Source: a virus. From it: a DNA stretch of 31,720 nucleotides. Positions 1 through 31,720 of this stretch are shown here, piece after piece (within the stretch, counting starts at the first letter, position 1; each line of letters begins with the position of its first letter). The position numbers and the translations under genes were made by a program. Location of the stretch: the IMG/VR virus record IMGVR_UViG_3300045988_054704; one strand, 5' to 3'. The notes beneath the pieces are model-generated. The model ran no database searches. It had not been told where the DNA came from and saw only the letters and a program-made list of their open reading frames with translations.

Positions 1-127
1 AGCATTACGCCAGGAGAAGCGGATCGAGGAAGAGCTGGAACGCTTAAAGCTGGATCGGATGCTTCCGGGAGCACTGGCAGCAGATGGGCTGCCAAAAAGC
101 AGCAACCATTCTGATCTGTCGGATTAT
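1..127. repeat. Left arm of terminal inverted repeat (partner 31594..31720)
   Basis: Positions 1..55 are the exact reverse complement of 31666..31720. Mismatches occur only at 56, 88 and 108 up to position 127, after which the two sequences diverge. The arm lies inside the regulator ORF. Confidence 0.95.
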
Positions 128-367
128 ATGGCGAAGATTGATGAACTGGAAAGAAAGCTGATCAGGCAGAGGGGAAAGAAAGTCCAGATTCGTACAGAAA
201 TCAGAGAGAGGATTGAAGAACTGGATAACGAGAAAGAAAAAGATGTGCTGACGAAACGATACATAGATTGTGAGGGATGGAACAGGATCTGTGATGAAAC
301 GGGATACAGATGGACACAGGTACACAGAAATCATTCAGAAGCTTTAAAAAAATTCAAAATGGTATAG
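2..367 (+). CDS. Late-gene transcriptional regulator, RinA/ArpU-like with a sigma region-4-type HTH (5' partial; ORF open to the window edge)
   Basis: The frame is open from nt 2. The C-terminus 'DVLTKRYIDCEGWNRICDETGYRWTQVHRNHSEALKKF' resembles a sigma-70 region 4 / RinA-ArpU HTH. It sits immediately upstream of the HNH and terminase genes. It is a paralog of 31327..31719. Confidence 0.6.
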   Translation, partial: ALRQEKRIEEELERLKLDRMLPGALAADGLPKSSNHSDLSDYMAKIDELERKLIRQRGKKVQIRTEIRERIEELDNEKEKDVLTKRYIDCEGWNRICDETGYRWTQVHRNHSEALKKFKMV

Positions 368-418
368 AATGGTACACTCGGTCTGTGATATAGTGTATTC
401 AGGTAAAGAGATGAACAG

Positions 419-451
419 GGCAGCAGTCGAAAGATTGTTGCCTTTTTCTTT
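419..451 (+). terminator. Intrinsic terminator-like hairpin after the regulator gene
   Basis: GGCAGCAGTC-gaaa-GATTGTTGCC forms a 10-bp stem including G-U pairs with a GAAA loop, followed by TTTTTCTTT. The partner copy has a C->T change that keeps pairing as U-G. Confidence 0.6.
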
Positions 452-585
452 GCCATGAATTCCGGAAAGAGGTTTGGCGGTTTACTCTGGAAAGAATTTA
501 TTCATACGTCAGTACATTTGTTTGTTGCGATTATTACTTTTTTGAACTCCTTATTACAGATACAGAAACCGTCAGAGGAAAAGAT
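419..585 (+). promoter_or_regulatory. Conserved noncoding late-operon leader (partner 31134..31300)
   Basis: It is nearly identical to the module B copy, with 65-nt (464..528) and about 38-nt (544..581) perfect blocks. The flanking coding DNA is only about two-thirds identical. Indels between the copies break any common reading frame. Confidence 0.7.
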
Positions 586-939
586 ATGAAGGAACAACGG
601 AACCCAAGAAGCGCTAACGGGAATCTGAGAAGAAAACACCGGGCGAGGTTTAAAGCAATAGGTGGAGAATGCGGGATATGTAAAGGCAGGCTTGGCCCCA
701 TACATTACAATGAACCAAGCGATAGCAAACATCCGTTGTCTTTTGTTATAGATGAAATCAAACCGGTGTCAAGGTGGCGTGAGTTTGGATATAACTCACG
801 TGAAGCAGCGGCACAGGACTGGAACAACCTGCAACCGGCGCATTACTGTTGCAACGCAGCGAAAAGCAATAAAACGTTGAATGAAATGCAGAGGAGCCAG
901 CAAAAGCCCAAAATGAACGTTACAGATGGGGAATGGTGA
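586..939 (+). CDS. HNH endonuclease (terminase-associated type)
   Basis: Motifs 'CGICKG', 'FVIDEIKPVSR' and 'NLQPAHYCCNAAKSNK'. It lies directly upstream of TerS/TerL. RBS GAGGA lies 6 nt before the ATG. Confidence 0.75.
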   Translation: MKEQRNPRSANGNLRRKHRARFKAIGGECGICKGRLGPIHYNEPSDSKHPLSFVIDEIKPVSRWREFGYNSREAAAQDWNNLQPAHYCCNAAKSNKTLNEMQRSQQKPKMNVTDGEW

Positions 940-950
940 GAACTGCAAAT

Positions 951-1009
951 AGAGGGTGGGGAGGGTACCCCGCCACGCGGCGGCGGCGACCACCGCTGTC
1001 CAGCGCCGA
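951..1009. other. GC-rich intergenic patch, candidate cos region of module A
   Basis: 'agagggtggggagggtaccccgccacgcggcggcggcgaccaccgctgtccagcgccg' stands out from the AT-richer surroundings. It contains the palindrome GGGTACCC and a GCG/GCC run. It lies between HNH and TerS. Confidence 0.35.
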
Positions 1010-1045
1010 TTTACACACAGGGAATTTCTTGAAAGGTGAATTTTG

Positions 1046-1315
1046 ATGGGAAGAGCAAAAAAAATGGCAACAGTAACAAGCGAAGGAAGCCGCTTGGAAC
1101 GCTTGGAAAATTTGGCACTGATACTCGCAAAACAGATTGATATATGCGCGAAAGATGCTGCTGACGGTCCGAAGACAATGCCTCAGCTCTCCAGACAATA
1201 CAGAGAAACAATCAAAGAAATTGAAGAAATAAAAGGAATGGAGAAAGACGATGACGAAATCGGAGAAATCCTGTCGGCACGAAAAGCTGATGGGAAGCCA
1301 GACACCGTCCGATAG
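1046..1315 (+). CDS. Putative terminase small subunit
   Basis: A small charged protein immediately upstream of, and overlapping, TerL. RBS AAGGTG precedes the ATG at 1046; the track start at 1043 is a TTG. The call is positional only. Confidence 0.5.
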   Translation: MGRAKKMATVTSEGSRLERLENLALILAKQIDICAKDAADGPKTMPQLSRQYRETIKEIEEIKGMEKDDDEIGEILSARKADGKPDTVR

Positions 1316-2684
1316 AATTGTTCCGGATTACGCTTATACGGATGGCCCAGATGCGGTGAAAGTGCTTGCGGTCGGGAAATTGATTGTGGATCCGTGGCAG
1401 AGTGAAGTGCTGAATGATTGGATGGGGCGTACAGAGGATGATGTTTGGTCAGCGCCGACATGTGGCTTATCTGTTCCAAGACAGAACGGGAAAACACTGG
1501 ATACTTCCGGGCGGATTGCATCCGGAATGATTCTGTATGCAGAATGGGTTATATACACAGCTCATCTGCAGAAAACTGCAACAGAAACCTTTATGGAATT
1601 GCGCGGCTTGTTTGAAAGCAGAGGACTCCGTAAGTATGTAAAAGAAATTAAGGCGGCACTCGGAAGAGAACAGATTATTCTAAAAAATGGTGGAAGAGTA
1701 GTATTTGTTGCCAGAACAAGGAATGGTGGTCGAGGACTGCATGGCGACTGTCTTGTGTTTGATGAAGCACAGGAATTGACAAGCGAGCAGCAGGCATCTT
1801 TTTTGCCGGCAATATCAGCGTCAAGGAATCCACAAACGATTTATCTTGGAACACCACCGGATGAAAATTGTACCGGCACAGTATTCCGGAAGATAAGAAA
1901 ACGGGCAACGGAAGGTGAGAGCAAATCCACAGCCTGGACAGAATATTCTGTGAAAGAGATTGGAGATGTTACTGATCGTCAGAGATGGGCGGATTGCAAT
2001 CCGGCACTGGGGCGAAGAATGACAGAAACAACCATAGCTGCAGAGTGCGAACAGATGGATGCGGACACGTTTGCAAGAGAGCGTCTCGGCTGGTGGTCGC
2101 CAATCAACAATGATCAGGACTATGCAATTGATAAGAAGAAATGGGAAGAATGTGCTTCGGAAAAAGAAAAACCGGAAGGGAAAACTGCTTACGGTGTAAA
2201 GTTTTCGCTTGACGGTTCGGCGGTAGCATTATGCGGAGCTGTCTGTCCAGAGGTAGGGGAAGCGAGAATTTCACTGATCGAGCTTAAAACAACGGACAGA
2301 GGAATCCAGTGGCTTGCGGATTGGCTAAATCAGAGATACAAGATGGCAAGCTGTGTGGTGATCGATGGAAGAAATGGAGTTGACTTCCTGATAGAGAAGA
2401 TAACACCGGTGTGGAAATATAAGCAGTCAATTGTTCGACCGGCAGCAAAAGAAGTGATAGCAGCGGCGAGTCAGCTATCACAGGAAATCAATGAACAGAC
2501 TGTAACATGGTATAAATACCAAGAAATACTGAATGAATCAGCAATTACGTCTGTAAAAAGACCGATTTCCGGTGGCTGGGGATTTGGTGGAGAAAACTCA
2601 ATCCCGATCGAAGCAGCAGCACTTGCACTTTGGGGATGCAGAACATCGAAACGAAATCCGAACAGAAAGATGAGGATAGGATAA
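1251..2684 (+). CDS. terL: Terminase large subunit
   Basis: Walker A-like 'VPRQNGKT', Walker B-like 'CLVFDEAQ', and the upstream 'DPWQ' motif typical of TerL N-termini. Confidence 0.9.
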   Translation: MTKSEKSCRHEKLMGSQTPSDRIVPDYAYTDGPDAVKVLAVGKLIVDPWQSEVLNDWMGRTEDDVWSAPTCGLSVPRQNGKTLDTSGRIASGMILYAEWVIYTAHLQKTATETFMELRGLFESRGLRKYVKEIKAALGREQIILKNGGRVVFVARTRNGGRGLHGDCLVFDEAQELTSEQQASFLPAISASRNPQTIYLGTPPDENCTGTVFRKIRKRATEGESKSTAWTEYSVKEIGDVTDRQRWADCNPALGRRMTETTIAAECEQMDADTFARERLGWWSPINNDQDYAIDKKKWEECASEKEKPEGKTAYGVKFSLDGSAVALCGAVCPEVGEARISLIELKTTDRGIQWLADWLNQRYKMASCVVIDGRNGVDFLIEKITPVWKYKQSIVRPAAKEVIAAASQLSQEINEQTVTWYKYQEILNESAITSVKRPISGGWGFGGENSIPIEAAALALWGCRTSKRNPNRKMRIG

Positions 2685-4117
2685 TGGAGTTAAATTTTGG
2701 AAGAGTAGAAGGATTACCACCGGAAGAACAACAGTGGCTTCAGGAATTGAAATACATATATGATTATCACAGAAGTGCAAATAGGAAAAAGCGCCGTTAT
2801 TATAACGGAAAAGTCACACTGAATGAAGTGAATCTTGGGATTGCATTGCCAGCAGGTCTTGGAAAACTTGAGATTGGATGTGCCTGGGGAGCAAAAACCG
2901 TTGATGTACTTGCGGGAAGATCGATGTTTGATGGGTTTGTTACAGAAAATGGAACGAAGTCAGAAGATATGGATCAGATTATGAAAAGGAATCATTTGAT
3001 AGCGGAATACAATAAAGCGGTCAAAGAAGAACTGAAATACGGTTGTGCATTTGCGGCGGTATCCGGAGAGGAAGATGATGCAAGAGTACGGTTTTACTCT
3101 CCACATTGTGCTGCAGCTTCGTGGAATGCACACGAAGGACGCATCCGATATGGATTTGCCTTTGAAGATGCGCGAAGAGACGAGTCGGATGTTACATGGT
3201 CTCCGGAACATGTAAATTTCTATACAGACACAGACATCTGGGAACTGGATCGGATTGGAGGTACATGGTATGCTACGCAGAATCCCCATTATTTCGGAGA
3301 ACCCCTTATGGTGGCTCTGATCTGGGACGCAACAAACGATAAACCATTTGGTCAGTCAAGGCTAAAAGAGCCGGTCCGCAGACTAATCCAGGGATATGTA
3401 AGAACAGTCGCAAATGCAACGATTGGACTGGAATTTGCCACTTCTCCACAGAAATATCTGCTCGGGGTGTCAGATGAACAATATGATATGCTGATTGATA
3501 ATAAATTCAAACAGTATGTTGGAAGTATTCTCTACAGTACCAATAATCCGGAGACTGGGGAAAAGCCGAATTTCGGGCAACTTTCGCAGGGAAATATTGA
3601 ACCACATGTTCAGATGCTCCGGATGCTTGCTACACAGTATTCAGCGGCAACGGGGTTGGCGGTTACGGATGTTGGTGTGATAAATGATGCAAATCCGACT
3701 TCCAGTGAAGCAATTATTGCACAGTCACAGACCTTGATCCTTATGGCAGAACAGCTGAATAAATCAAATGGTGATGCATTGTATCGGATTGGACGGATGG
3801 CACTTGCAATTGAACTTGGAACGATTCCGGATGAGCTTCCGGAAGAAACACATGAGCTGATTGCACATTTTAAGAATCCGGCAATGCCAAGCGTGGCATC
3901 TACTACAGATGCAGCACTCAAAATTGCGACAGCGCGACAAGGATTTGCACAGACAGATATTTTCCTTGAAATGATTGGTTTTGATCAGGCAGATATCCGC
4001 AGAATCCGAGCACAGGAACAAAGGGCAAAAGGTGACAGTATCTTGACGGAGGAATTTGGAAATGCAGATAACGGAGAAAGCGTGGCTGGAGTACATAACG
4101 AAGATGTCACAGATTAG
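2684..4117 (+). CDS. Portal protein (SPP1 gp6-like)
   Basis: About 478 aa, starting at 'MELNFGR' in an ATAATG overlap with the TerL stop. It is followed by a MuF/gp7-like gene, as in SPP1-type heads. Confidence 0.75.
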   Translation: MELNFGRVEGLPPEEQQWLQELKYIYDYHRSANRKKRRYYNGKVTLNEVNLGIALPAGLGKLEIGCAWGAKTVDVLAGRSMFDGFVTENGTKSEDMDQIMKRNHLIAEYNKAVKEELKYGCAFAAVSGEEDDARVRFYSPHCAAASWNAHEGRIRYGFAFEDARRDESDVTWSPEHVNFYTDTDIWELDRIGGTWYATQNPHYFGEPLMVALIWDATNDKPFGQSRLKEPVRRLIQGYVRTVANATIGLEFATSPQKYLLGVSDEQYDMLIDNKFKQYVGSILYSTNNPETGEKPNFGQLSQGNIEPHVQMLRMLATQYSAATGLAVTDVGVINDANPTSSEAIIAQSQTLILMAEQLNKSNGDALYRIGRMALAIELGTIPDELPEETHELIAHFKNPAMPSVASTTDAALKIATARQGFAQTDIFLEMIGFDQADIRRIRAQEQRAKGDSILTEEFGNADNGESVAGVHNEDVTD

Positions 4118-5345
4118 CCAGAAAGCAGCGGATCTGATGCAGTCCTGGGTTCAGAAGAATGGATTGGAAAACGATAAAGCACTTTTGGACTACGCCTATG
4201 CACTGTCACAACACTATGGACAGGCTATCGGTGCATTATCGTGCCAGATGTATGAAGCGACAGCTGCAGCACAGGGAGTAATAGTCCCTACGGCAGAAGT
4301 AGCAGATCTCCCGGACTATGGGGAAGTGGCAAAAGCAGTAAAAGGAACAAAAAAGCAGTCTCCGAACAATATTCCTGGAACGCTTGCAAGGCTTGTAAAA
4401 CAGGTAGGTGCAGATACGACACTGAAAAATGCAGAGCGTGACGGGGCACAGTTTGCCTGGGTGCCACATGGGGACACCTGTGCTTTCTGCATTACACTTG
4501 CGTCCAGAGGATGGCAGAACATGTCAAAGAAAGCTCTTAGGAATGGTCACGCGGAACACATTCATGCGCATTGCGATTGCGAATATGCAGTCCGGTTTGA
4601 TGGAAAAAGCACGGTTGCAGGATATGATCCGGATAAGTATCTGGAGGAGTATCAGGCAGCAGGCGGTGACATCAATGCCATGCGCCGGATGATATACAAA
4701 GAGAATAAAGAGGCTATTAATGCGAGGAAGAGAGAACTGTATGCAGAACAGGCTTACCGAAAGGTTAAAAGAGGAAAAGCAGAAGAAATTTCATTGACCA
4801 GAGGCGGCAAAGAAGTGGCGGTTTCGGTTAGAAAAGTGGAAAGCTATGATACATCTATGTATATATCAGATCAAGCACAGATAAAGCCAAAAGCATTGAA
4901 TGCAATTAATCAGAACACAGAAAAGGCCTTGAAAGAATATGGTGTTCCAAGCGAACGGAAGCCAACAATTGTGATTCTGGCAGATGATGAACTGAAAAAT
5001 GCCCTTGGTTTGTATGATCCGTGTACAAATACAGTATATTATAGTCAGTCAATAGCAAAGCAGGAAATACAGAAATTAGCTGGTGGAAAAGATGCTGTTG
5101 AAAGGCATGAAATGTGGCATATGAAACAGGCAGAAGAATTCCGAAAAGCGGGTTGGGAGATTACCAAAGAAAACCGTAGTGAATATCTGAAAGAACTGTG
5201 CAAAAAGGCAAAGAAAAATCTTGACGCATTAGGAATTACGCAGGATAATGTAAGTGAAATAAGCGATTATGCATATCAACAATATCAATTAGGACGATAT
5301 GATGAAACGGAAGCAGAATATATGTTGATTTATAACAGGAGATAG
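4062..5345 (+). CDS. MuF / SPP1 gp7-like minor head protein fused to a C-terminal HExxH domain
   Basis: MuF-type motifs 'AWVPHGDTCAFCITLASRGW' and 'HAHCDCEY' lie in the N-terminal half. The C-terminal third carries 'AVERHEMWHMKQAE' (HExxH). GGAGG lies 8 nt before the ATG at 4062. Confidence 0.75.
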   Translation: MQITEKAWLEYITKMSQISQKAADLMQSWVQKNGLENDKALLDYAYALSQHYGQAIGALSCQMYEATAAAQGVIVPTAEVADLPDYGEVAKAVKGTKKQSPNNIPGTLARLVKQVGADTTLKNAERDGAQFAWVPHGDTCAFCITLASRGWQNMSKKALRNGHAEHIHAHCDCEYAVRFDGKSTVAGYDPDKYLEEYQAAGGDINAMRRMIYKENKEAINARKRELYAEQAYRKVKRGKAEEISLTRGGKEVAVSVRKVESYDTSMYISDQAQIKPKALNAINQNTEKALKEYGVPSERKPTIVILADDELKNALGLYDPCTNTVYYSQSIAKQEIQKLAGGKDAVERHEMWHMKQAEEFRKAGWEITKENRSEYLKELCKKAKKNLDALGITQDNVSEISDYAYQQYQLGRYDETEAEYMLIYNRR

Positions 5346-5350
5346 AGAGA

Positions 5351-5509
5351 ATGAAACTCATAAAGTATCCGGATGAGATAGAAAAGTTAATGAAAGTATA
5401 CGAACCGTATGTCAATCATATTCATGATGGGAAAATTGAAAACGTGCCGGAAGAGGTTAGTGAAGCGTTTGAAAAAGTAAAAGCCTGGGCTTGGGAGCAA
5501 GAACAGTAA
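5351..5509 (+). CDS. Small hypothetical protein (52 aa), below the ORF-track cutoff
   Basis: ATG at 5351 is preceded by 'aggagatagagaga'. Translation is MKLIKYPDEIEKLMKVYEPYVNHIHDGKIENVPEEVSEAFEKVKAWAWEQEQ. It lies directly downstream of the MuF-fusion gene. Confidence 0.4.
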   Translation: MKLIKYPDEIEKLMKVYEPYVNHIHDGKIENVPEEVSEAFEKVKAWAWEQEQ

Positions 5510-5535
5510 CAGAGGGAAAAGAACCAGCAGGTTTT

Positions 5536-5676
5536 ATGAAAATACGAATTCCGGATGGAGAGATTGTAGAGCATGAAAATACAAGCATGTTTGCAGCACC
5601 ACACGTGAGGCGAGAATTGAAAAGGATTGCAAAGATGGATAATCCACCAAAAGAAAAAACGGTAATATGGTATTAA
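5536..5676 (+). CDS. Small hypothetical protein (46 aa from ATG 5536; the track offers a TTG at 5491)
   Basis: An open frame co-oriented with the operon. The RBS is weak and there is no recognisable motif. Confidence 0.25.
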   Translation: MKIRIPDGEIVEHENTSMFAAPHVRRELKRIAKMDNPPKEKTVIWY

Positions 5677-5740
5677 AAGCCACTGATCGGAAACGGTTGG
5701 TGGTATTTTTATACTCATTTTTAAGAAAGGAAGAAAGAAC

Positions 5741-6235
5741 ATGAGATTTGACGAGGCATTTAAAATAATGAAGCAGGGTAGCAAAGTGAAAATTCCATCT
5801 TGGGGCGGTTATTGGTTTTGGTCAAAAGAGAAACAGACTATTATCATGCACACAAAAGATGGCGAAGAGTTGGATATCAGAGAGACAAAGATTCCAGATT
5901 ATACATTTGGAAATATCTGTTCTGATGAATGGGTACTGGCAGACGGAGAAAATTGTCCGGAACTGGGCGGAGAAGCTCTGTTTTCATTTGGAGAAGCAAT
6001 TAAATATCTGAAACGTGGAATGAAAGTGGCACGTAAAGGCTGGAATGGAAAGGGACAGTACATCCAGCTTGCAACCGGAATTTCATATAAAACAGAAGAT
6101 GGGGATATTGTAAATTGTGAGCATGATGCCATCGGAAACATGGCTATTGCATTCTGCGGAACATCTGGTGTTCAGATGGGATGGTTAGCGTCTCAGGCTG
6201 ATATGCTGTCAGAGGATTGGAAATTTGCAGAATAG
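5741..6235 (+). CDS. Tandem DUF2829 (Tad2-like) protein
   Basis: The second half, 'FSFGEAIKYLKRGMKVARKGWNGKGQYIQL...GWLASQADMLSEDWKF', matches the DUF2829 signature. The first half, 'MRFDEAFKIMKQGSKVKIPSWGGYWF...ICSDEWVL', is a shorter copy of the same pattern. Confidence 0.7.
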   Translation: MRFDEAFKIMKQGSKVKIPSWGGYWFWSKEKQTIIMHTKDGEELDIRETKIPDYTFGNICSDEWVLADGENCPELGGEALFSFGEAIKYLKRGMKVARKGWNGKGQYIQLATGISYKTEDGDIVNCEHDAIGNMAIAFCGTSGVQMGWLASQADMLSEDWKFAE

Positions 6236-6264
6236 GAAAGGCGGTGATCCAGATATCTCCCTTT

Positions 6265-6293
6265 AAGGCGCAGGGTTACGCGTCTTATTTTTA
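6265..6293 (+). terminator. Terminator-like hairpin after the DUF2829 gene
   Basis: AAGGCGC-agggttac-GCGTCTT forms a 7-bp stem with one G-U pair, followed by ATTTTTA. Confidence 0.4.
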
Positions 6294-6351
6294 TGGCAAC
6301 ACGTGCCTTAAACGTGGCAACTAAAAACACTCAAATCAGGAGGGAAACAAG

Positions 6352-6798
6352 ATGGCAGATGACAAAACATTCACTCAGGCAGAAATGGATTCAATCATAG
6401 AGGGACGCCTTGCGAGAGAAAGACAGAAATATGCAGATTATGATGACCTGAAAGAAAAGGCAAGTAAGTACGATGAGTACCAGGCGCAGAATAAAACGGA
6501 ACTTCAGAAGGAAAAAGAAAAGTCCGATGCTCTTCAGGCAAAATTAAGCGCACTTGAAAAGAAAGACACTGTAAGACAGGTAAGAGAAAAAACAGCAAAA
6601 GACACTGGTGTACCGGTAGAATTACTGACAGGGGAAGATGAGGAAACCTGTAAAAAACAGGCAGAAGCGATTATGAAATTTGCGAAGCCAAAGAGTTATC
6701 CGGGAACTAAGGGAAACAGGAAAAAGACAACAGAGTATAACACAACGGATGATGCAATGAGAGAATTTGCACATCAAATTTTTGGTAAAGGAGAATAA
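6352..6798 (+). CDS. Capsid scaffolding protein (DUF4355-like)
   Basis: N-terminal 'FTQAEMDSIIEGRLARERQK', a long charged coiled-coil stretch, and a position immediately upstream of the capsid gene. Strong RBS AGGAGG. Confidence 0.8.
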   Translation: MADDKTFTQAEMDSIIEGRLARERQKYADYDDLKEKASKYDEYQAQNKTELQKEKEKSDALQAKLSALEKKDTVRQVREKTAKDTGVPVELLTGEDEETCKKQAEAIMKFAKPKSYPGTKGNRKKTTEYNTTDDAMREFAHQIFGKGE

Positions 6799-6803
6799 AG
6801 AAT

Positions 6804-7700
6804 ATGGCAGCACTTATTAGCTCAGATTTTGAAATTCCGGCAGAGATTTCGCAGGGGATTTTTGAAAAAGCACAGAAAGGATCTACTCTGGCGCAGTTAT
6901 CCGGAGCAAGACCGCAGAAATTTGGAAAACAGCAGGTGTGGGTACTTACATCGCCACCGAAAGCAGAACTCGTAGGAGAGGCAGGGCAGAAATCGCCAAC
7001 CCCAACTGCATATGCTCATAAAGCAGTAAATCCGTTCAAACTGCAGGTTACCATGAGATTTTCGCAGGAAGTACAGTGGGCAGACGAAGATGTACAGATC
7101 GGCGTACTGCAGGATCTGGCGTCAAATGCGTCAATCGCACTGGGAAGAGCATTGGATCTTGTTGGAATTCACAAAATCAATCCGCTTACAGGAACGGTAT
7201 CAAGCCTTGTAAAAGAAGGGCTGGTTGACACGAAACAGAGTGTGCAGCTTGCAGGCACAAAGTATGATGAAGCAATCGAGGCGGCAGCAGGAATGATCAT
7301 CTCGTCTGGCTATGTACCGAGTGGTATTGCAATGGATCCAACACTTTCCTTTGGTCTTTCCACTATGAGGGATGCGGATGGAAGAAAGATTTATCCGGAA
7401 ATTGGATTCGGACAGAATCTTACAAATTTTTCCGGAATGACTGCGGCAGTATCTGATACAGTTTCAGCAAAAAATGAAATCACACCAGATACGAAGTTAC
7501 TTGGAATCGTAGGACAGTTTGATGCGTTTAGATGGGGAGTACAGAGATCCATTGGCGCTCACTTGATCGAATACGGTGATCCGGATGGACTTGGAGACCT
7601 GCAGAGACAGAACCAGATTGCAATCCGTGCAGAAATTGTATACGGAATTGGAATCATGGATCAGGCAGCATTTACAAAGATCGTGAAGGCGGAAGAGTAA
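6804..7700 (+). CDS. Major capsid protein (HK97 fold, scaffold-dependent type)
   Basis: 298 aa, directly after the scaffold gene, with a capsid-like sequence ('...IAIRAEIVYGIGIMDQAAF'). Confidence 0.85.
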   Translation: MAALISSDFEIPAEISQGIFEKAQKGSTLAQLSGARPQKFGKQQVWVLTSPPKAELVGEAGQKSPTPTAYAHKAVNPFKLQVTMRFSQEVQWADEDVQIGVLQDLASNASIALGRALDLVGIHKINPLTGTVSSLVKEGLVDTKQSVQLAGTKYDEAIEAAAGMIISSGYVPSGIAMDPTLSFGLSTMRDADGRKIYPEIGFGQNLTNFSGMTAAVSDTVSAKNEITPDTKLLGIVGQFDAFRWGVQRSIGAHLIEYGDPDGLGDLQRQNQIAIRAEIVYGIGIMDQAAFTKIVKAEE

Positions 7701-7701
7701 T

Positions 7702-7983: not shown

Positions 7984-7991
7984 GTGATACA

Positions 7992-9227: not shown

Positions 9228-9242
9228 TGAAGGAGGATAAAA

Positions 9243-10443: not shown

Positions 10444-10444
10444 G

Positions 10445-21819: not shown

Positions 21820-21824
21820 ATGCA

Positions 21825-22145: not shown

Positions 22146-22169
22146 TTCCAGTCCTCCTCTTCTTTCTAC

Positions 22170-22178
22170 ATCATACCA
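22170..22178 (-). promoter_or_regulatory. Extended -10 promoter-like element (TGgTATGAT) upstream of the moron
   Basis: The - strand reads 'tgtggTATGATgtag' about 25 nt upstream of the ATG at 22145. The -35 region is poor. Confidence 0.35.
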
Positions 22179-22187
22179 CATTTTTCT

Positions 22188-22801: not shown

Positions 22802-22815
22802 TTTCCTGCCTCCGA

Positions 22816-23364: not shown

Positions 23365-23365
23365 T

Positions 23366-24668: not shown

Positions 24669-24975
24669 ACGTTATTTCTACGAAAGATTTTCCTTTTTTG
24701 TAAGCACGGATAATGTCGTACTCTGCCTCTTCGTAGATCACCTTTCTTGCGTATTCTGGTTTTCCATCTTCTCCTGGATGTCTGCTTGCTTCCCAGTCAT
24801 CTGTCCTGAGTTTCAGTATAATGCGGGCATTTACTCCTGCCCGCATAGATTCATATGCTTCCGCTCTGGTTACGGATTTTTCCATTGCATATACTTCAAC
24901 AGAACATCTTTTTCTTTCCGGGAAACCATTTTCATTTTTACAGATTTTCTCCCAGATCAGTTCCGCCGTTTCCAT
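24661..24975 (-). CDS. Head closure / head-tail adaptor protein
   Basis: The likely start is 'METAELIWEK' at 24975 with RBS AAAGGAGAAG. About 104 aa in a neck position. Confidence 0.55.
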   Translation of the reverse strand: METAELIWEKICKNENGFPERKRCSVEVYAMEKSVTRAEAYESMRAGVNARIILKLRTDDWEASRHPGEDGKPEYARKVIYEEAEYDIIRAYKKGKSFVEITCG

Positions 24976-25246
24976 TTTTCTTCTCCTTTGCATAATCCCC
25001 GGAAAGTGCCATGGAATCCCTCAGTTTTTCAAAGGCTGTCTGGAAGCGCTCTGTATTTTCATCATATCCGAAATTTGCTTTGCAATACAGAACCATTGCC
25101 TGATAGTACAGCGCATCCGTTGCCGGATCGCCGTACACACCAGTGTTTTCCAATTCCTTTACACACGCCAGTGCCAGTTCATTGATTTCTTCATCATTCC
25201 TGGTCCCGACACGTTTTTTCAGCCTCTCAATTATCCTTCCATCCAT
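24938..25246 (-). CDS. Head-tail connector (gp6-like)
   Basis: The first gene after the capsid. 'EEINELALACVKELENTG' is a connector-like helical N-terminus. Confidence 0.55.
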   Translation of the reverse strand: MDGRIIERLKKRVGTRNDEEINELALACVKELENTGVYGDPATDALYYQAMVLYCKANFGYDENTERFQTAFEKLRDSMALSGDYAKEKKNGNGGTDLGENL

Positions 25247-25247
25247 C

Positions 25248-26447
25248 TTAAGCCGCTTTCTTCTTCATGACTACAAGCGAATTCAGTTCCAGAGATTTTC
25301 CATCGCAGATCATAACCGCCTTTGTAATCTCATCTTCTGTATCATTGTCCTCATACTTTTTAACAGTCATTGCATAATTCGTATTGAACATATAATCAGA
25401 CCAGTCATACAGGAATGCCACTGTAGTATCCGCTTCCGTTGCAGCTCCATAGCTATCCATATAGTCATTGAGCACGACTTTTCTTCCAAGAAGTGTGCGC
25501 TCCGGTTTTCCGTCAATTCCCTGGTTTACTCTTGCGATTGGCTGTCCGTTCGCATCCACTTCTCCGACAAATGCCATGAAGGTCTTTTTCGTCATATTCC
25601 AGACCGCACCATTTTCATACGCGAGCGGAAGTGCGGCTTCTGCTTCAACAAGTTTCTTGTATAAAGAATCTTTATCACCAACTTCGATGCTCTGTCCTTC
25701 CGGAGCTGTTTCATTTAAAATTCCTTTCGGTTTTCCTTCTCCATCTCCATTTACAATCGCTTCCTCCTGTGCTTTCACCATGGCTTCCGCAATGCTGTTT
25801 ACAAATACAGTTTCAAATACAGTAAGCGACATGGTTACTGCTTCCAGTGTCATTGAAATTGCACATCTCAGCTTGAAACCTCTTATATCAATGTAGCCGG
25901 TTGTCTTTTTCTGTTTTTCACTTGTTCCACCTTCTGCAACCCATGTTGCAACCGGTTTTACGCTTGAAGCTGGAATTCTTGCGCCTGGTGCAAAAGTGGT
26001 CTTCGTAACCAGTGGAAGAATCATACCGATTGATTCCATTTTTTCAATAATACGGCTAATCAGAACCGGTGCAATGACAGAACCGATATCTCCCGTTTTA
26101 GTCGGTCCGGCTTCATTTTTGAACTTCTCCGGAATCTTTGTTCCATTGACTACATAATTCATGAAGGCAATTCGATATTCCTGAGAGTTATAAATATTTT
26201 CCGGTTCTGAAACTTTTGCTCCAAAATCAGCCTTGCTGCCATTCTGTTCAAATACATTTAACGGTTTCGGTTCTTCATTCAGTGCTTTGAAATTCGCCTG
26301 TGCCTGCGCAATCGCATCCCATTTCTCATCCAGATCCTTTACTTCATCCATTTTAGAATCTGCTTCCTTGATCTTCCCTTCATTGATCAGACCTTCCGCT
26401 TCATCCATCAGTTTTTTTCTCATCGCTTCATACTGCTTTTTGTTCAT
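25248..26447 (-). CDS. Major capsid protein, HK97 family (with N-terminal delta-like region)
   Basis: 399 aa with an N-terminal coiled-coil 'KKQYEAMRKKLMDEAEGLINEGKIKEADSKMDEVKDLDEKWD'. It directly follows a ClpP-like protease gene. Confidence 0.9.
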   Translation of the reverse strand: MNKKQYEAMRKKLMDEAEGLINEGKIKEADSKMDEVKDLDEKWDAIAQAQANFKALNEEPKPLNVFEQNGSKADFGAKVSEPENIYNSQEYRIAFMNYVVNGTKIPEKFKNEAGPTKTGDIGSVIAPVLISRIIEKMESIGMILPLVTKTTFAPGARIPASSVKPVATWVAEGGTSEKQKKTTGYIDIRGFKLRCAISMTLEAVTMSLTVFETVFVNSIAEAMVKAQEEAIVNGDGEGKPKGILNETAPEGQSIEVGDKDSLYKKLVEAEAALPLAYENGAVWNMTKKTFMAFVGEVDANGQPIARVNQGIDGKPERTLLGRKVVLNDYMDSYGAATEADTTVAFLYDWSDYMFNTNYAMTVKKYEDNDTEDEITKAVMICDGKSLELNSLVVMKKKAA

Positions 26448-27133
26448 CTTTTTTCTCCCTTCAATTTTAAAAGTTTTAACTTCTGCAGTGCCACTTTATC
26501 CGGAACTTCCTCTCCGGATTCCATCATTTTTCTTGCCGCATTCATCTTTGTCTGATCCGGCAATTTGAACATAGGTCCTGCCACAAGCTGTAAGTTTGTT
26601 TCCTTTTCTTCAAACATAACCTTATCAATCAGTTTCTTTTCTTTCGCCTGATCTGCAGTCAGCCAGGTTTCATGCTCCATCATTTCGAGTGCCTCTTCCT
26701 GGCTCATTCCGCTCTTGGCAACATACGCTGTACTCAACGCATTGTCTGCTGTTCGCAGCGTTTCCGCCATATGTTCCATATCGCTGTGATTTCCTTCTGT
26801 GCCCGAAGAAACACAATGTACCATCATCAGTGCTGTCGGGGACATTTCACAATATCCTGCCATTGCCACAATCGATGCAGCACTGCAAGCCTGACCGGTA
26901 ATATAGATTTTCACATCTGCCGCACACTGCCTAAGCATAGTGTAGATTTCAGATCCTACATCAATGATTCCTCCTGGAGAATTTATCATGACCTCCACTT
27001 CGTCACCCGGCTGAACATTTTTCAGCACATCTGTTACATCTTTCGGAGCTGTGCTGTCCGCGCCGAACCAGTCATAATACCACTTATAATCGTTCGGGAT
27101 CATAACGCCTTTAATATCAATCCTGTATTTCAT
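26444..27133 (-). CDS. Prohead protease, ClpP-like (S14)
   Basis: 'INSPGGIIDVGSEIYTML', 'GQACSAASIVAMAG' and 'MMVHCVS'. It lies between the portal and capsid genes. Confidence 0.9.
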   Translation of the reverse strand: MKYRIDIKGVMIPNDYKWYYDWFGADSTAPKDVTDVLKNVQPGDEVEVMINSPGGIIDVGSEIYTMLRQCAADVKIYITGQACSAASIVAMAGYCEMSPTALMMVHCVSSGTEGNHSDMEHMAETLRTADNALSTAYVAKSGMSQEEALEMMEHETWLTADQAKEKKLIDKVMFEEKETNLQLVAGPMFKLPDQTKMNAARKMMESGEEVPDKVALQKLKLLKLKGEKR

Positions 27134-28394
27134 TCTTCTTATCGCCTCCTTCCGCAGAATCAAGTAATCTTGTTATAATTTCCGCAGTGACCATGTAATT
27201 TTTACTGTCCATTTTTCCCAAAGCTTCTTTCACCAGATTCACAACCTGCGTATCCAGTCTTCGTATCGGTTCGTCGCCACCCGGAATCGGAGCCATATTC
27301 AGCGTTGCTCTCCATTCATTCGGAAGCATTGCACCTCTGTCAACCATTGCTTGGAATGCCAGTTTTGTTGTAAGGCTTGCGCAGGAAAGATTGTTTGCTT
27401 CAAATTCGATTCGGTTTCCGAACCCCCGTTCCTTTCTGGTAAAGATTCCGGTTGTATAGGTCTGGTGCATCTGAACAACTTCCGGTTCTATCTCCGCTTC
27501 GTAATACGCATTCCATTCATCCTCGTTATAATCACTCTGGACAATTTTCTTGTTGGTATTGAAAAATGAATAGATTCTTTCGATTGTGCGATCCGTCTGT
27601 GCTGCATTTGGAACGTAATCTTTTGGTTCAATTCGCTCCACCTTTGCCTTCGCATCCACGCCAGCCGCCCCGAACGTATCCGTTTCAACAGCCAGATAAT
27701 TTTCAACGAACTTCTCAACATTTCTCTTGATGTCCTCTTCCCTCATTGATGAACTGTAAGTCAGAAGCCACCGTATGATCCCGCTGTTCTTGATTGCGCG
27801 GATCATCCCTTTGTCAATCGTGCCGATCACATTCATCATCTGCGTAAGTGCCGGCGCAGGACTGTCTCCGAAAATATCATCTTCGTTGTAATCGTGGCGC
27901 AAATGGATGATATCTGCATACCGAAATGTCCCACTTTTCCCATTACGATACAAAAATTTCAGGAACAATTCACCCGAGCTGTCATACTTTGCTTCGGCAG
28001 ACACACACGGGACTGGATACAACTGCACCGGTTTCTCGTTCTCATCCCGTACGATCAATATGAATGCATTATTATTCAAACATAACTGTGTAGCAACCTT
28101 TTCCTGCATCTGCTGTGCCGTCATATACGGGTTTGGTTCGGAAAGTAAAAATCTGATGTTCGCTTCCGTGTTTACCTTGATCCCGCCTTTCGGATCATCT
28201 CGGATATGTTTTCCAACCAGCTTTCCGATCGCTTTCACTTTCGGACGGATGCAGGCTCTTACAATATCACTTTCATATAACTTTCCATCCCACGCATAGT
28301 AATAATCACCTGTCATGGTAATCATCTTGATCATGTTATGCTCTGTTGCTTTTTCGTCTGTCTTTGTTGGTTCTCTTTTCCAAAATGGTTTCAT
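27117..28394 (-). CDS. Portal protein, HK97 family
   Basis: 425 aa between TerL and the prohead protease. RBS GGAGG. Confidence 0.85.
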   Translation of the reverse strand: MKPFWKREPTKTDEKATEHNMIKMITMTGDYYYAWDGKLYESDIVRACIRPKVKAIGKLVGKHIRDDPKGGIKVNTEANIRFLLSEPNPYMTAQQMQEKVATQLCLNNNAFILIVRDENEKPVQLYPVPCVSAEAKYDSSGELFLKFLYRNGKSGTFRYADIIHLRHDYNEDDIFGDSPAPALTQMMNVIGTIDKGMIRAIKNSGIIRWLLTYSSSMREEDIKRNVEKFVENYLAVETDTFGAAGVDAKAKVERIEPKDYVPNAAQTDRTIERIYSFFNTNKKIVQSDYNEDEWNAYYEAEIEPEVVQMHQTYTTGIFTRKERGFGNRIEFEANNLSCASLTTKLAFQAMVDRGAMLPNEWRATLNMAPIPGGDEPIRRLDTQVVNLVKEALGKMDSKNYMVTAEIITRLLDSAEGGDKKNEIQD

Positions 28395-28405
28395 GTTACC
28401 TCCAC

Positions 28406-28428
28406 AAAAATAAGAGCCTCCTGGCTCT
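28406..28428 (-). terminator. Weak terminator-like hairpin between TerL and portal
   Basis: On the - strand, AGAGCC-agga-GGCTCT is followed by TATTTTT, beginning right after the TerL stop codon. Confidence 0.3.
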
Positions 28429-30120
28429 CTAAATCAATGACATATATTCATTTATGTTATCCTGCATCACTACATAGGCATCCAACAACGCCGCTGTTCC
28501 ATCAATCCTTCTTCTTGGACTGCTTGTTTTGATCGGCTGTATGTTATCGTTTCTGTCAATATCTACTGCCGTATTGCACAAACACCATTTATCAACCGGA
28601 TTGTTGTTATACACGATCAGCTTTCTTTCCAGATCAGCTCCAAGACACTTCATCGGCTGCGATAAAGTCTTTTTTCCCTGAATCACCGGTATCATTGCTG
28701 ATTTTCCGAAATAGTCCTGCATATCTTCCACAAAATATTTTGCACTCCATGCATCATAGCCGAACATATTCAAATAAATATCTTGCTTTTCCTGTATTTC
28801 TACAAACCATGCTTTTACATCTCTGTAGGAAATCTTGTTTCCTGGACACGTCCGCACATATCCTTTTTCTATCCAGATATCGTATGGTACTTTGTCCTCT
28901 GTCACATGTTTGTCTACCAGTTCTTCTGGAATCCAGTACATGGAAATTACATAAATATGTTCATCATTCGGAACTTTAAACAATACTTTCGCTGCTGTTA
29001 AATCCGTTGTAGACGACAGATCGACTCCGCCGATTCCATATCTCGGCTTTAACACTTCCAGATCGTACTTTTCCGGATTATTCGCCTGTTCAAATGTGAG
29101 CCATGCCTCTGATGAAGTTTCCCTGATGTTGAACTCTTTACAAAGCAGATTTTTAACCATGATCGGATTTTTCTTGGCTTTTTCCACCTTGTCTTTCAAA
29201 GTTTTGGCATTCTTGATCGTTCCAAGTCCCGGATTTGCTTTCATCCAGCATTCTTCCTGCGTCCACTCTTTCCGATTGTCCAATTCATAAATAAATGCAA
29301 TCAGATGTTCGTCTTTGTAGCCATCTGGATCAAAATATCCATTGATCACATTCTCTGCCTCTTCATACTTTTGATCATAGATATCTTCCCGGATAGTTCC
29401 GGCTGTTGAAGTAATGCTGATCAGCGGCTGTTCCCTCGCTGTGATTCCATCCGCCATGATATCATACAAGGCTTTCCCCTGTTTCCACTGGTGGATCTCG
29501 TCCATTAGAACACAATGGATATTAAGACCATCCAGAGTATCACTATCTGAAGCCAAAGGTTTGAATACACCATCATTGAACTCTGTCGTAAGTTCTGCCA
29601 CCAGAGGTTTCACTCTTCTCAGAAGTGATGGTGATTTCTTTACCATTCTTTTTGATTCCAACCAGATAATCTTACTCTGATCTTTCTTAGTGGCAACCGC
29701 ATATACTTCCGGTCCCATTTCTCCATCAGCAGTAAGCATATAAAGACCAACTACAGATGCCAGAAGAGATTTTCCGTTTTTCTTTCCCACAATCAAGATC
29801 GATTCCCGGTATTTCCGATTGCCCTCAATATCAATAAATCCAAACACTGTTGCGAGATAAGCTTTTTCCCACAATTCAAGCAAAACTCTTTTCCCACCAA
29901 ATTTTCCTTTGGAATGTCTGCAATAATTTTCAGCAAACTCGATCACATGATTTGCTCGCTTAGGACTGTAATAATATTCTCCTGGGTTTTGAATATCATA
30001 AACAACTTTCTTGTAAGTCCGATACACCTTATTCGATACAATAATTTCTTTGTTCTGGATCTTTTCCCAGTATTCCAGAATCGGATTGTATTCCTCAGGG
30101 TATCTAATCATCCCTGCCAT
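28429..30120 (-). CDS. terL: Terminase large subunit (Terminase_1-like)
   Basis: Walker A 'VGKKNGKS' and Walker B-like 'CVLMDEIHQ'. 563 aa. Confidence 0.9.
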   Translation of the reverse strand: MAGMIRYPEEYNPILEYWEKIQNKEIIVSNKVYRTYKKVVYDIQNPGEYYYSPKRANHVIEFAENYCRHSKGKFGGKRVLLELWEKAYLATVFGFIDIEGNRKYRESILIVGKKNGKSLLASVVGLYMLTADGEMGPEVYAVATKKDQSKIIWLESKRMVKKSPSLLRRVKPLVAELTTEFNDGVFKPLASDSDTLDGLNIHCVLMDEIHQWKQGKALYDIMADGITAREQPLISITSTAGTIREDIYDQKYEEAENVINGYFDPDGYKDEHLIAFIYELDNRKEWTQEECWMKANPGLGTIKNAKTLKDKVEKAKKNPIMVKNLLCKEFNIRETSSEAWLTFEQANNPEKYDLEVLKPRYGIGGVDLSSTTDLTAAKVLFKVPNDEHIYVISMYWIPEELVDKHVTEDKVPYDIWIEKGYVRTCPGNKISYRDVKAWFVEIQEKQDIYLNMFGYDAWSAKYFVEDMQDYFGKSAMIPVIQGKKTLSQPMKCLGADLERKLIVYNNNPVDKWCLCNTAVDIDRNDNIQPIKTSSPRRRIDGTAALLDAYVVMQDNINEYMSLI

Positions 30121-30520
30121 TTACAAAATCCTCGAATCCATCATTTGTCTTGGTCGCCACCTGCTCTTTCGGTACCAAATCCGTCAGCTGCTTTATGACA
30201 GCCATATAGTTTTTGATCATTGTATTATATATTTCAACTTCTGCAGACTTCTTGACGCCTTTCTGGTTCGCACCATTCTGGTATTCTTCTGTGTAACCTT
30301 TTTCGGCAATCTTTTGTCGCAATTCATGTAGAGAAGCACCCATGAAAGCAGCCTCTTCTACGAGATTTTCTGTTGCTTTTTTTGTTTTTTCATCAAGCTT
30401 TTTATAGATTCCGCCAAGTTTTCTTTTCTCGGCCGCAATAATCTGTTCTTTGGTTTTCCCCTCGTATTTCGCCACTTTTCCCGGTTTCTCCTTCCTTTTT
30501 TCGTTTATTCTTTTCACCAT
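30104..30520 (-). CDS. Terminase small subunit (P27-family-like)
   Basis: 138 aa, overlapping the TerL start, lying between a GC-rich gap and TerL. Confidence 0.6.
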   Translation of the reverse strand: MVKRINEKRKEKPGKVAKYEGKTKEQIIAAEKRKLGGIYKKLDEKTKKATENLVEEAAFMGASLHELRQKIAEKGYTEEYQNGANQKGVKKSAEVEIYNTMIKNYMAVIKQLTDLVPKEQVATKTNDGFEDFVNGRDD

Positions 30521-30523
30521 TAC

Positions 30524-30585
30524 CTACACCCCCTCACGCGCGCGACCTGCGTGTTGCATGGAGGTAGGACTGTGGTCAGCCGTGA
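30524..30585. other. GC-rich intergenic patch, candidate cos region of module B
   Basis: The - strand reads 'cacggctgaccacagtcctacctccatgcaacacgcaggtcgcgcgcgtgagggggtgtagg'. It lies between HNH and TerS, as in module A. Confidence 0.35.
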
Positions 30586-30596
30586 TTTTTTACAAA

Positions 30597-30920
30597 TTAT
30601 TTTTCAGGGGGGAGTACGACCATTTCCCCCTCGCTATCAAATTCATATTTCACAAGACCGTCCGCCGGTCCATCTTTCATATTTTCTTTTTGATGGCAGA
30701 TATGGCAGTCATACTTTAGATTATTAAATCCTAACGCAATGTCCAAGTCACTGATGTTGTCCGGCGTCAGTTCTATCTTGTGATGTACGATGTATCCTGG
30801 TACTTCATGACAGGTCTCACACATTCCGCCGTCAATCGATATTCTCTTTGCTATGTATGCTCTTCTACAATCCTTCCATCTCTTTGAATTGTAGAACGCT
30901 CTTGCAAATTCTTTTGCCAT
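30597..30920 (-). CDS. HNH endonuclease (terminase-associated type)
   Basis: 'FYNSKRWKDCRRAYI', 'CETCHEVPGYIVHHKIEL' and 'NLKYDCHICHQKEN'. Confidence 0.9.
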   Translation of the reverse strand: MAKEFARAFYNSKRWKDCRRAYIAKRISIDGGMCETCHEVPGYIVHHKIELTPDNISDLDIALGFNNLKYDCHICHQKENMKDGPADGLVKYEFDSEGEMVVLPPEK

Positions 30921-30926
30921 TCATCT

Positions 30927-31133
30927 CTACCTTCTATTCATTACAGTTGCAAGCTCACCAAAAAGGCTTGATAATTCCAAGCAGTCTTCTTTTGTGAGTT
31001 GGTGAGAAAAATAATCATCACACTGTTCATTCAGATAAACTGCATTGTTTTCAAAGCATATTGAAAATATTCTATCTTCTTTCATCTTGTCCAATAGGCA
31101 TTTATGTTTATCAATTATCTCTTCTCTATCCAT
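30927..31133 (-). CDS. Hypothetical protein (68 aa), first ORF after the conserved leader
   Basis: RBS 'agaggaaagaaacc' precedes the ATG. No recognisable motif, and no counterpart in module A. Confidence 0.5.
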   Translation of the reverse strand: MDREEIIDKHKCLLDKMKEDRIFSICFENNAVYLNEQCDDYFSHQLTKEDCLELSSLFGELATVMNRR

Positions 31134-31300
31134 GGTTTCTTTCCTCTGACGGTTTCTGTATCTGTAATAAGGAGTTCTAAAAAAGTAATTGCAACAAACA
31201 AATGTACTGACGTATGAATAAATTCTTTCCAGAGTAAACCGCCAAACCTCTTTCCAGAATTTACGGCAAAGAAAAAGGCAACAATCTTTCGACTGCTACC
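31134..31300 (-). promoter_or_regulatory. Conserved noncoding late-operon leader (partner 419..585)
   Basis: See 419..585. The homology stops a few nt before the first start codon in both copies. Confidence 0.7.
31268..31300 (-). terminator. Intrinsic terminator-like hairpin after the regulator gene
   Basis: On the - strand, GGTAGCAGTC-gaaa-GATTGTTGCC is followed by TTTTTCTTT. Confidence 0.6.
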
Positions 31301-31326
31301 CCGTTTCAATTCTTTACCTGCATATA

Positions 31327-31719
31327 CTATATCACAGGTTGAGTGTCGCATTCTATCGCATATTTAAATTTTTTCAATGCATCTGAATGCTTTTTATGCA
31401 CATACTGCCAGCAATACCCGGTTCTTGCACAGATTTCTTTCCATCTCATAAGATCTATGTAATGATAAGTCAGGATATCTTTCTCTGTCTCGTCTTCCAT
31501 CTGCTCAATTCTTTCCCTGATTTCAGTCCGGATCCTAACTCTTTTCTTTCTCTGTTCCACCAGTTTCCGTTCCTGTTCGTCCACTTCTGCTGCATAATCC
31601 GACAGATCAGAAAGGTTGCTGCTTTTTGGCAGTCCATCTGCTGCCAGTGCTCCCGGAAGCATCCTATCCAGCTTTAAGCGTTCCAGCTCTTCCTCGATCC
31701 GCTTCTCCTGGCGTAATGC
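31327..31719 (-). CDS. Late-gene transcriptional regulator, RinA/ArpU-like with a sigma region-4-type HTH (5' partial)
   Basis: The ORF is open to the window edge. The C-terminus is 'DILTYHYIDLMRWKEICARTGYCWQYVHKKHSDALKKF'. It is a paralog of 2..367. Confidence 0.6.
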   Translation of the reverse strand, partial: ALRQEKRIEEELERLKLDRMLPGALAADGLPKSSNLSDLSDYAAEVDEQERKLVEQRKKRVRIRTEIRERIEQMEDETEKDILTYHYIDLMRWKEICARTGYCWQYVHKKHSDALKKFKYAIECDTQPVI

Positions 31720-31720
31720 T
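31594..31720. repeat. Right arm of terminal inverted repeat (partner 1..127)
   Basis: Reverse complement of 1..127 with 3 mismatches. The outermost 55 nt are perfect. Confidence 0.95.

Follow-up and report, generated by a model that had tools for sequence, protein, structure and literature searches.

The 31,720-nt viral contig analysed here, referred to throughout as the window, is probably an assembly mis-join of two Coprococcus comes prophages, A and B, through an inverted segment that both of them carry. We infer that the assembler created the join and that no cell contains it. A replicon with two virion programmes would have had no precedent; since the arrangement is most likely an assembly product, it should be kept out of any catalogue of new phage architectures. 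The sequences do document, in C. comes prophages, a Rin-like shufflon of receptor-binding protein (RBP) genes served by a tyrosine recombinase, whose own gene flips as well.

Organization of the window

The window is an entire metagenome contig, and the longest contig carrying the exact RBP-A protein is likewise 31,720 nt. Its GC skew and ORF strands define an array on the + strand extending to 15040 and an array on the − strand running from 31662 down to 15043, with two stop codons facing each other, 2 nt apart, at 15040/15043. This bears out the two regulator-to-RBP operons that the first-pass annotation saw meeting at this point. They are not full as described there, since each contig end falls inside a regulator gene. 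The complete regulators are 141 and 150 amino acids long, and their genes start 58-59 nt outside the window. The features are as follows.

1..14628, + strand: late operon of prophage A, opening with the 5′-truncated regulator and ending in the constant N-terminal region of the RBP
1..581, + strand: left terminal repeat arm, comprising the 3′ part of regulator A and a conserved leader; 1-55 is the inverse of 31666-31720
14623..15398, no strand: shared invertible segment XY; no other part of the window occurs in both canonical prophages, and the two carry XY oppositely oriented with respect to the RBP gene
14629..14646, + strand: crossover site TGAATTAAGTAGCAATTT, which reads in frame as ELSSNL and lies at the constant/variable boundary of RBP-A
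14647..15040, + strand: cassette X, the variable C-terminal domain now joined to the RBP-A N-terminus
15043..15379, − strand: cassette Y, the variable C-terminal domain now joined to the RBP-B N-terminus
15376, no strand: discriminating SNP; the window has G, as do most prophage B copies, whereas canonical prophage A has A
15380..15397, − strand: second, inverted copy of the crossover site, at the constant/variable boundary of RBP-B
15398..31720, − strand: late operon of prophage B, opening with the 5′-truncated regulator and ending in the constant N-terminal region of the RBP
31140..31720, − strand: right terminal repeat arm, comprising the 3′ part of regulator B and the conserved leader

Genes were assigned to families using PHROG and Pfam. 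Module A begins with a DUF1492-type regulator, the leader, an HNH gene, TerS/TerL, an SPP1-type portal (PF05133) and a VG15/MuF-like protein, and continues with a Tad2-like gene, a DUF4355 scaffold, the capsid, tail genes, TMP, Dit, a Gp37-like protein and the RBP. In module B the regulator, leader, HNH gene and TerS/TerL are followed by a PF04860 portal, a ClpP protease and a 399-aa capsid, and then by tail genes, a 1363-aa TMP, Dit, a Gp37-like protein and the RBP. Both resources agree with the earlier assignment of the two heads to different lineages.

The homology previously noted at the outer and the inner ends of the modules is also confirmed. The terminal inverted repeats, 581 nt in length, comprise regulator and leader and show 77-98% identity, the outermost 55 nt being perfect copies. 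At the inner ends, 12659-14648 and 17353-15378 share 69% nucleotide identity; residues 1-174 of RBP-A and RBP-B are 67% identical, and the proteins are unrelated downstream. As reported before, no holin, endolysin or integrase gene is present among the ORFs of the window, and a tRNA search of it was empty; replication functions are likewise absent from the contig. Rfam models at gathering thresholds gave 0 matches in the window. Megablast of both halves against the phage collection found no close relatives: the Tad2-like gene matched Dorea phage DO134P1 over 590 bp, the TMP gave a weak hit, and nothing else in that collection matched.

Two canonical prophages and their shufflon

Each half of the window also occurs by itself elsewhere, in a separate canonical prophage that has a recombinase, a lysis module and a host flank of its own. 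Prophage A, corresponding to window 1..15398, is found on contigs of up to 552 kb and in one C. comes isolate. The 552-kb contig (L028) matches window 1-10939 at 100%, and L013, L015, L016 and L019 (102 kb) match 4144-15398 at ≥99.9%. Module A together with RBP-A is carried by these four contigs, which are the ones aligned up to 15398, by L073 (109 kb) and by the C. comes isolate contig L074 (GCA_013300465.1). In all six the sequence beyond the window encodes a tyrosine recombinase of 329 aa, then another pair of cassettes, a holin and a GH25 lysin before reaching the host SASP/carAB genes. Prophage B corresponds to window 31720..14623. A 644-kb contig (L032) and L036 (GCA_015554275.1) match 31720-20597 at 99.9%, and L003 matches 25882-14623 at 99.96%; in L003 and others the sequence beyond the window contains the recombinase, cassettes, holin, lysin and host SdpI/glyoxalase/ApbA/MurJ genes. 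The host flanks are thus different loci, SASP/carAB for A and SdpI/ApbA/MurJ for B.

These canonical continuations are present in dozens of contigs, and both modules reside in full prophages possessing replication, lysis and integration functions; GTA-like and satellite readings were set aside on this ground. No contig longer than 32 kb carries both modules on one molecule, every long contig having one module and its own flanks. The two prophages share a common backbone, with an early region 87-96% identical at the nucleotide level, recombinases 98% identical at the amino acid level, and holin and Big-domain genes 97-100% identical at the nucleotide level.

The overlap of the two halves is XY, a segment of 776 bp, prophage A contigs matching the window up to 15398 and prophage B contigs down to 14623. 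The 18-bp site TGAAYTAARTAGCAATTT occurs twice in the window, where 0 matches are expected by chance. Each prophage has four copies, oriented + − + − in turn. The inverted pair at 14629-14646 and 15380-15397 had been overlooked in the first-pass annotation.

Cassette X is silent and inverted behind RBP-B in L003-L012, and in P0101 it is joined to the RBP-B N-terminus within the same prophage B context. Cassette Y is silent behind RBP-A in canonical prophage A, and in L041 it is joined to the RBP-A N-terminus. Across assemblies all four RBP fusions are therefore present (B N-terminus with Y, B with X, A with X, and A with Y), as are both orientations and orders of the recombinase and second cassette pair. 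Because both orientations are seen in both prophages, XY is the first invertible unit of a four-cassette shufflon; to judge from these sequences, it really does invert within prophages A and B. Such an inversion would give the RBP a different receptor-binding C-terminus.

The cassettes found intact and in frame number at least seven (X, Y, Z, A3, A4, B3 and B4), are 109-139 aa long and come four to a prophage; those in the window are X and Y. The XY pair is 95-100% identical at the nucleotide level across phages that have non-orthologous virion modules and differ in their RBP N-termini, of which there are at least five kinds. Between the cassette pairs lies the gene for the tyrosine recombinase, and no resolvase-type gene is present in the shufflon. 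This protein (PF13495 and PF00589) is Xer-like and lacks an arm-binding domain; its best NCBIfam match is XerA, at 201 bits, under the cutoff of 220. The gene is found in related loci only and is absent from the window. Presumably this recombinase, adjacent to the shufflon, is what inverts XY; and since two convergent cassette pairs flank its gene, the gene itself flips.

Origin of the junction

Of the explanations listed in the first-pass annotation, the evidence favours an assembly join. In prophage A the XY segment stands with X expressed, and in prophage B the same DNA is reversed, with Y expressed. With XY oppositely oriented in the two phages, both enter one shared graph node from opposite sides. 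A walk from A through XY into the reverse of B is then a legal graph path, and it would be the one taken by the assembler: the contig would run outward along prophage A and then, via the repeat, backwards into the mosaically related prophage B. The parts that A and B have in common are the early region and regulator, the right arm (recombinase, holin and lysin) and the 776-bp X/Y pair. At either end the walk would halt inside the regulator gene, on reaching the point where the two phages become one sequence once more.

Several features of the contig are those expected of a chimera. Its halves overlap in near-identical sequence longer than a short read, each continuing differently elsewhere, and both its ends and the alternative break points are located at graph forks. 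Position 15376 is the only difference between the XY copies of A and B, and the crossover could therefore lie anywhere in 14634-15375. Two assemblies that are 100% identical to the window, L001 (k113) and L002 (Logan), both end at 15375, one base before this SNP. At the contig ends the inverted repeat is perfect for 55 nt and the first mismatch between A and B is at base 56, which is what a fork in a k = 55 de Bruijn graph would give; outside the window A and B stay identical for 154 nt more. Among the 57 other XY loci the tail-to-tail form is confined to L018, which includes a third virion module, and L068 shows the mirror arrangement. Both are short-read-style assemblies (their contig names are k141_ and an IMG/VR UViG), and the long XY contigs are all canonical.

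The alternative that survives best, though we consider it unlikely, is that the junction is real and arose in a double lysogen of C. comes by recombination of the prophage A RBP site with the distal site of prophage B. Either the shared shufflon recombinase would have acted at the sites, or homologous recombination would have taken place inside the 776-bp XY. The chromosome between the prophages would be inverted and the virion modules left tail to tail, and the reciprocal junction would bring the two recombinase/lysis arms together. With crossover sites identical in A and B and recombinases 98% identical, such an inversion is mechanistically plausible, and inversions between any +/− pair of sites within one prophage, presumably the work of this enzyme, are observed. 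L018 furnishes a second tail-to-tail contig, and L068, with a lysin on both sides, has the predicted reciprocal layout. A and B are 69% identical up to the site and about 100% identical from it onwards, an abrupt change that fits a past exchange there. L018 is a MEGAHIT contig that passes through the repeat unbroken, and this passage is easier to explain if the tail-to-tail form dominated that sample. To our knowledge, MEGAHIT does not use read pairs. Against a real inversion, all contigs >50 kb and the shufflon-carrying isolate contig L074 are canonical, and the tail-to-tail and mirror forms amount to 3 of the 58 loci, all of them in short-read-style assemblies. A mis-join would, moreover, yield an identical assembly graph, so that nothing observed requires a real molecule.

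It is somewhat more doubtful still that a shufflon recombinase encoded by one prophage also works in trans on a co-resident prophage, whose sites are identical, and inverts the intervening chromosome. If it did, the inversion would reversibly split both prophages into tail-to-tail and lysis-to-lysis hybrids, and RBP phase variation would double as an engine of inter-prophage module exchange or prophage disabling.

The remaining proposals are very improbable. One replicon with two alternative virion programmes, switched by flip-flop through the outer inverted repeats, is suggested only by the architecture of this single contig. Complete prophages carry one module or the other, each equipped with early, lysis and host-flank regions of its own, which is a finding that the first-pass annotation had named as refuting its proposal; the contig itself lacks replication, lysis and integration functions. 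The outer repeats were rejected as recombination sites: they are the shared regulator gene and leader, truncated symmetrically by the contig ends at the place where the assembly graph forks. Two prophages inserted tail to tail, with deletion of their lysis and integration modules, would account for the convergent layout without lysis genes in between, but we find this hardly credible, as the join is a seamless 776-bp overlap in a segment of both intact phages, with no deletion scar, and the attachment flanks of A and B differ. The earlier statement that the window is neither a simple duplication nor two ordinary adjacent prophages holds.

Comparison with known systems

Temperate siphophages are mosaic, and cos-type (protease-capsid) and pac-type (scaffold) heads are found on related backbones among Streptococcus thermophilus phages. 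Prophages A and B resemble these in having one backbone with two non-orthologous head and tail modules. Here the alternatives are in different genomes, which is ordinary mosaicism and not two modules on one replicon.

Chimeric contigs at inverted repeats common to co-occurring strains or phages are a familiar artefact of short-read assembly. As in such chimeras, the join in the window is within a near-identical repeat that exceeds read length, the two parents are also found apart, and discriminating SNPs mark both the contig ends and the points at which other assemblies break. The difference is that the repeat is here biologically invertible and present in both orientations, which multiplies the legal graph paths. 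The probable mis-join thus provides a worked example of how an invertible cassette common to related prophages can lead to hairpin-like chimeric viral contigs, the terminal inverted repeats of which could pass for genome termini.

Convergent alternative tail-fibre C-termini in an invertible segment are a feature that the shufflon shares with the G segment of Mu (Gin), the C segment of P1 (Cin) and Min of p15B, together with a crossover at the constant/variable boundary and a function in host-range switching. Those systems employ serine invertases with an enhancer and Fis. The present recombinase is of the tyrosine type and the segment is without tail-fibre assembly genes; membership in the Din family of serine invertase systems (Gin, Cin, Pin, Min) was rejected on account of the recombinase type. 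The layout also resembles the R64/IncI shufflon (Rci, pilV), with a tyrosine recombinase and multiple inversions; short sites of alternating orientation permit many permutations, and deletion derivatives occur. The target here is a phage RBP, whereas in R64/IncI it is a conjugative pilus adhesin.

The closest likeness is to the Rin shufflon of Bifidobacterium breve and B. longum prophages, which has an 11-bp crossover site, rix (TTCCCTAACCC) (Mavrich et al. 2018, PMC6109161). As in Rin (PMC6109161), several variable C-terminal cassettes without promoters lie behind a constant RBP N-terminus, and a short crossover site is repeated in front of every cassette. Also in common are an adjacent Xer-like tyrosine recombinase without an arm-binding domain and the occurrence of several inversion isoforms. 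In contrast to Rin, the host belongs to the Lachnospiraceae rather than the Actinobacteria, the site is 18 bp long and lies inside the ELSSNL codons, and the cassettes form two convergent pairs flanking the recombinase gene, which is outside the window. Because the site sequence differs, we have filed the shufflon as the same kind of system as Rin and not as a member of the same family. With its four sites, four cassettes and tyrosine recombinase, the shufflon of the C. comes prophages is Rin-like and, likened by architecture, the same kind of system, a newly found example of a kind already known.

Gene content of the convergent modules

The window comprises a plus-strand gene array reaching 15040 and a minus-strand array reaching 15043, between which the GC skew switches cleanly, enclosed by inverted repeats (arms 1-581 and 31140-31720, 77-98% identity). 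PHROG and Pfam assignments reveal two complete late operons, each running from a regulator to a receptor-binding protein (RBP), whose head genes are non-orthologous:

Module A (plus strand, left): SPP1-type portal, VG15/MuF-like protein, DUF4355 scaffold
Module B (minus strand, right): PF04860 portal, ClpP protease, 399-aa capsid protein

At the inner ends, Dit, the Gp37-like protein and RBP residues 1 to 168-174 are homologous between A and B (69% nt and 67% aa identity), and the RBP C-termini are unrelated. The first-pass annotation had described the arrays, repeats, operons and homologous inner ends accurately. No tRNA gene was found in the window, nor did any part of it match an Rfam family.

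Within head module A, a gene at 5741-6235 (+) specifies a 164-aa protein with a Tad2-like domain (PF11195, residues 82-161) and a full-length match to phrog_1048. The gene exhibits 93.6% nt identity to Dorea phage DO134P1; in loci L029 and L074 it is replaced by YjcQ and DUF6275 genes. The gene, whose position is thus variable in content, is a candidate for an anti-Thoeris function.

Canonical prophages carrying each module

Each half of the window is found elsewhere in a canonical prophage. For A, a 552-kb contig (L028) carries window 1-10939 at 100% identity, and four others (L013, L015, L016 and L019, the last of 102 kb) match 4144-15398 at ≥99.9%. Beyond 15398 these four carry the gene of a 329-aa tyrosine recombinase and another two cassettes, then a CD1375-like holin, Big-domain proteins, a second holin, a GH25/CW_7/LysM lysin and the host genes SASP, carA and carB. 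The layout is the same in a contig of a Coprococcus comes isolate (L074, GCA_013300465.1). In L017 (ERZ27281593 k141_12802, about 10900-11100) the prophage A match ends at 15241, inside cassette Y, with the RNase Y gene of the host directly after it. L017, which resembles two further contigs, represents a prophage that has been truncated or else another mis-join.

For B, window 31720-20597 is matched at 99.9% by L032 (644 kb) and L036 (GCA_015554275.1), and in L003 (43.5 kb) and nine other contigs the match extends down to 14623. L003 and several of these proceed through a recombinase, two cassettes, a holin, a lysin and host SdpI, glyoxalase, ApbA and MurJ genes; the rest stop within the shufflon. 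Upstream of both regulators lies an early region (DUF3846, REP_ORF2-G2P, RNase H, ParB, DUF4317, DUF551, YopX) in which A and B show 87-96% identity. Given this common region and the separate canonical contexts, A and B are mosaic relatives, separate genomes with a common backbone and alternative morphogenesis modules.

In L033 (GCA_964261755.1 CAXVQW010052500.1, 9200-9781), the regulator and leader ahead of module B are of the A type, with 97.9% identity to window 1-581, so regulator alleles are swapped between the backbones. Prophage A, 100% identical to the window, is also present in that metagenome assembly.

Origin of the join

Window 14623-15398 (776 bp), termed XY, is the only stretch in which the A and B contexts overlap:

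14629-14646 and 15380-15397, inverted copies: crossover site TGAATTAAGTAGCAATTT (2 matches, 0 expected by chance)
14647-15040, plus strand: cassette X
15043-15379, minus strand: cassette Y

The site lies in frame within ELSSNL codons, precisely where RBP homology ends. In prophage A, X is fused to the RBP and Y is silent; in prophage B the identical DNA is reversed, the sole difference between the copies being at 15376. Two contigs each 100% identical to the window, L001 and L002, end at 15375, which indicates a fork at that point in those assemblies.

The window is an entire contig, since the longest contig encoding the exact RBP-A protein is 31,720 nt. Elsewhere the regulators are 141 and 150 aa long and start 58-59 nt beyond the window, whose ends thus truncate the two genes symmetrically. 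Over their outermost 55 nt the two ends complement each other perfectly, the first mismatch falling at base 56, and in long contigs prophages A (L028) and B (L037) remain identical for a further 154 nt upstream; each end of the contig thus coincides with the last 55-mer that A and B have in common. Such ends are exactly those expected of a de Bruijn assembler run at k = 55, the highest k that SPAdes uses by default on short reads. The length of L001, a MEGAHIT k113 contig, would put its start 57 nt ahead of the window, and the end of its first 113-mer at the same base, 55. The window ends are assembly graph forks.

In such a graph A and B would both leave the node formed by their common regulator and meet again in XY, reaching that node from opposite sides, so that a walk from A through XY into reversed B would yield exactly the window contig. 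We therefore consider the contig probably an assembly mis-join, and the flagged architecture most likely occurs in no genome. All long contigs are canonical. Among 57 other loci carrying XY, L018 alone is tail-to-tail, its partner being a third virion module type; L068 is the mirror image, with lysin on both sides. The main rival, a genuine inversion in which co-resident prophages recombined at the crossover sites of XY, seems unlikely, although it is mechanistically plausible, given identical sites and nearly identical recombinases in A and B, and would explain how MEGAHIT came to assemble L018 through the repeat; its assembly graph, however, would be the same as that of a mis-join. The earlier proposals of one replicon with two virion programmes, or of prophages fused tail to tail with loss of lysis modules, are contradicted by the canonical context of each half and the seamless overlap.

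In L075 (ERZ501461 NODE_1164, 2.8x coverage) module A passes via the shufflon into a right arm of B type and the host genes that flank prophage B (SdpI, glyoxalase, ApbA). L075 may be another low-coverage chimera, alternatively joined at the same place as the window contig, or a real mosaic.

The non-coding leader between regulator and HNH genes (414-581 and 31140-31305) is 93-98% identical between A and B, the flanking genes about 77%. A strong hairpin in it precedes a U run (about 417-452; fold z-score -3.1), and the leader matched no Rfam family; it could be a terminator, an antiterminator target or a packaging-related site.

The RBP shufflon

Each prophage possesses four sites, oriented + - + -, in the order RBP site, cassette pair 1, site, recombinase, site, cassette pair 2, site. 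All cassettes are intact in-frame ORFs of 109-139 aa beginning ELSSNL or ELNSNL. One RBP (P0101) unites the RBP-B N-terminus with X in the same prophage B context and beside the same host flank, L041 has Y fused to the RBP-A N-terminus, and the recombinase gene and second cassette pair are found in both orientations and positions. These arrangements show XY to be a working invertible element. The recombinase is Xer-like (PF13495 and PF00589; best NCBIfam match XerA, 201 bits, short of the 220-bit cutoff), and its A and B copies are 98% identical. The copy in L003 (11368-12321, -) has 317 aa, diverges from the 329-aa form past residue 263, and may be frameshifted and inactive.

Eight two-cassette loci (L006, L009, L047, L055, L059, L062, L067 and L069) lack the recombinase and second pair downstream of the X-Y pair, and any switching there would need a recombinase in trans. 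Among two-cassette loci the sequence before X was read only in L006 and L008; in both, the distal-type site TGAACTAAATAGCAATTT lies there, together with a flank that elsewhere belongs to the fourth site. Such a hybrid beside X is expected after deletion between directly oriented sites, and suggests that the recombinase-less versions arose in this way. In L014 (10486-13130 of the 377-kb contig ERZ28759613) X occurs twice, in pair 1 with Z (109 aa) and in pair 2 with Y, which implies that cassette pairs reassort between phages.

C. comes phages whose RBP N-termini are of at least five different kinds have the first cassette pair in common, at 95-100% nt identity. The shufflon is real and Rin-like, and it belongs to an already known kind of system, typified by the tyrosine-recombinase RBP shufflon Rin of Bifidobacterium breve and B. 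longum prophages (Mavrich et al. 2018, PMC6109161), from which it differs in site, host and cassette layout.
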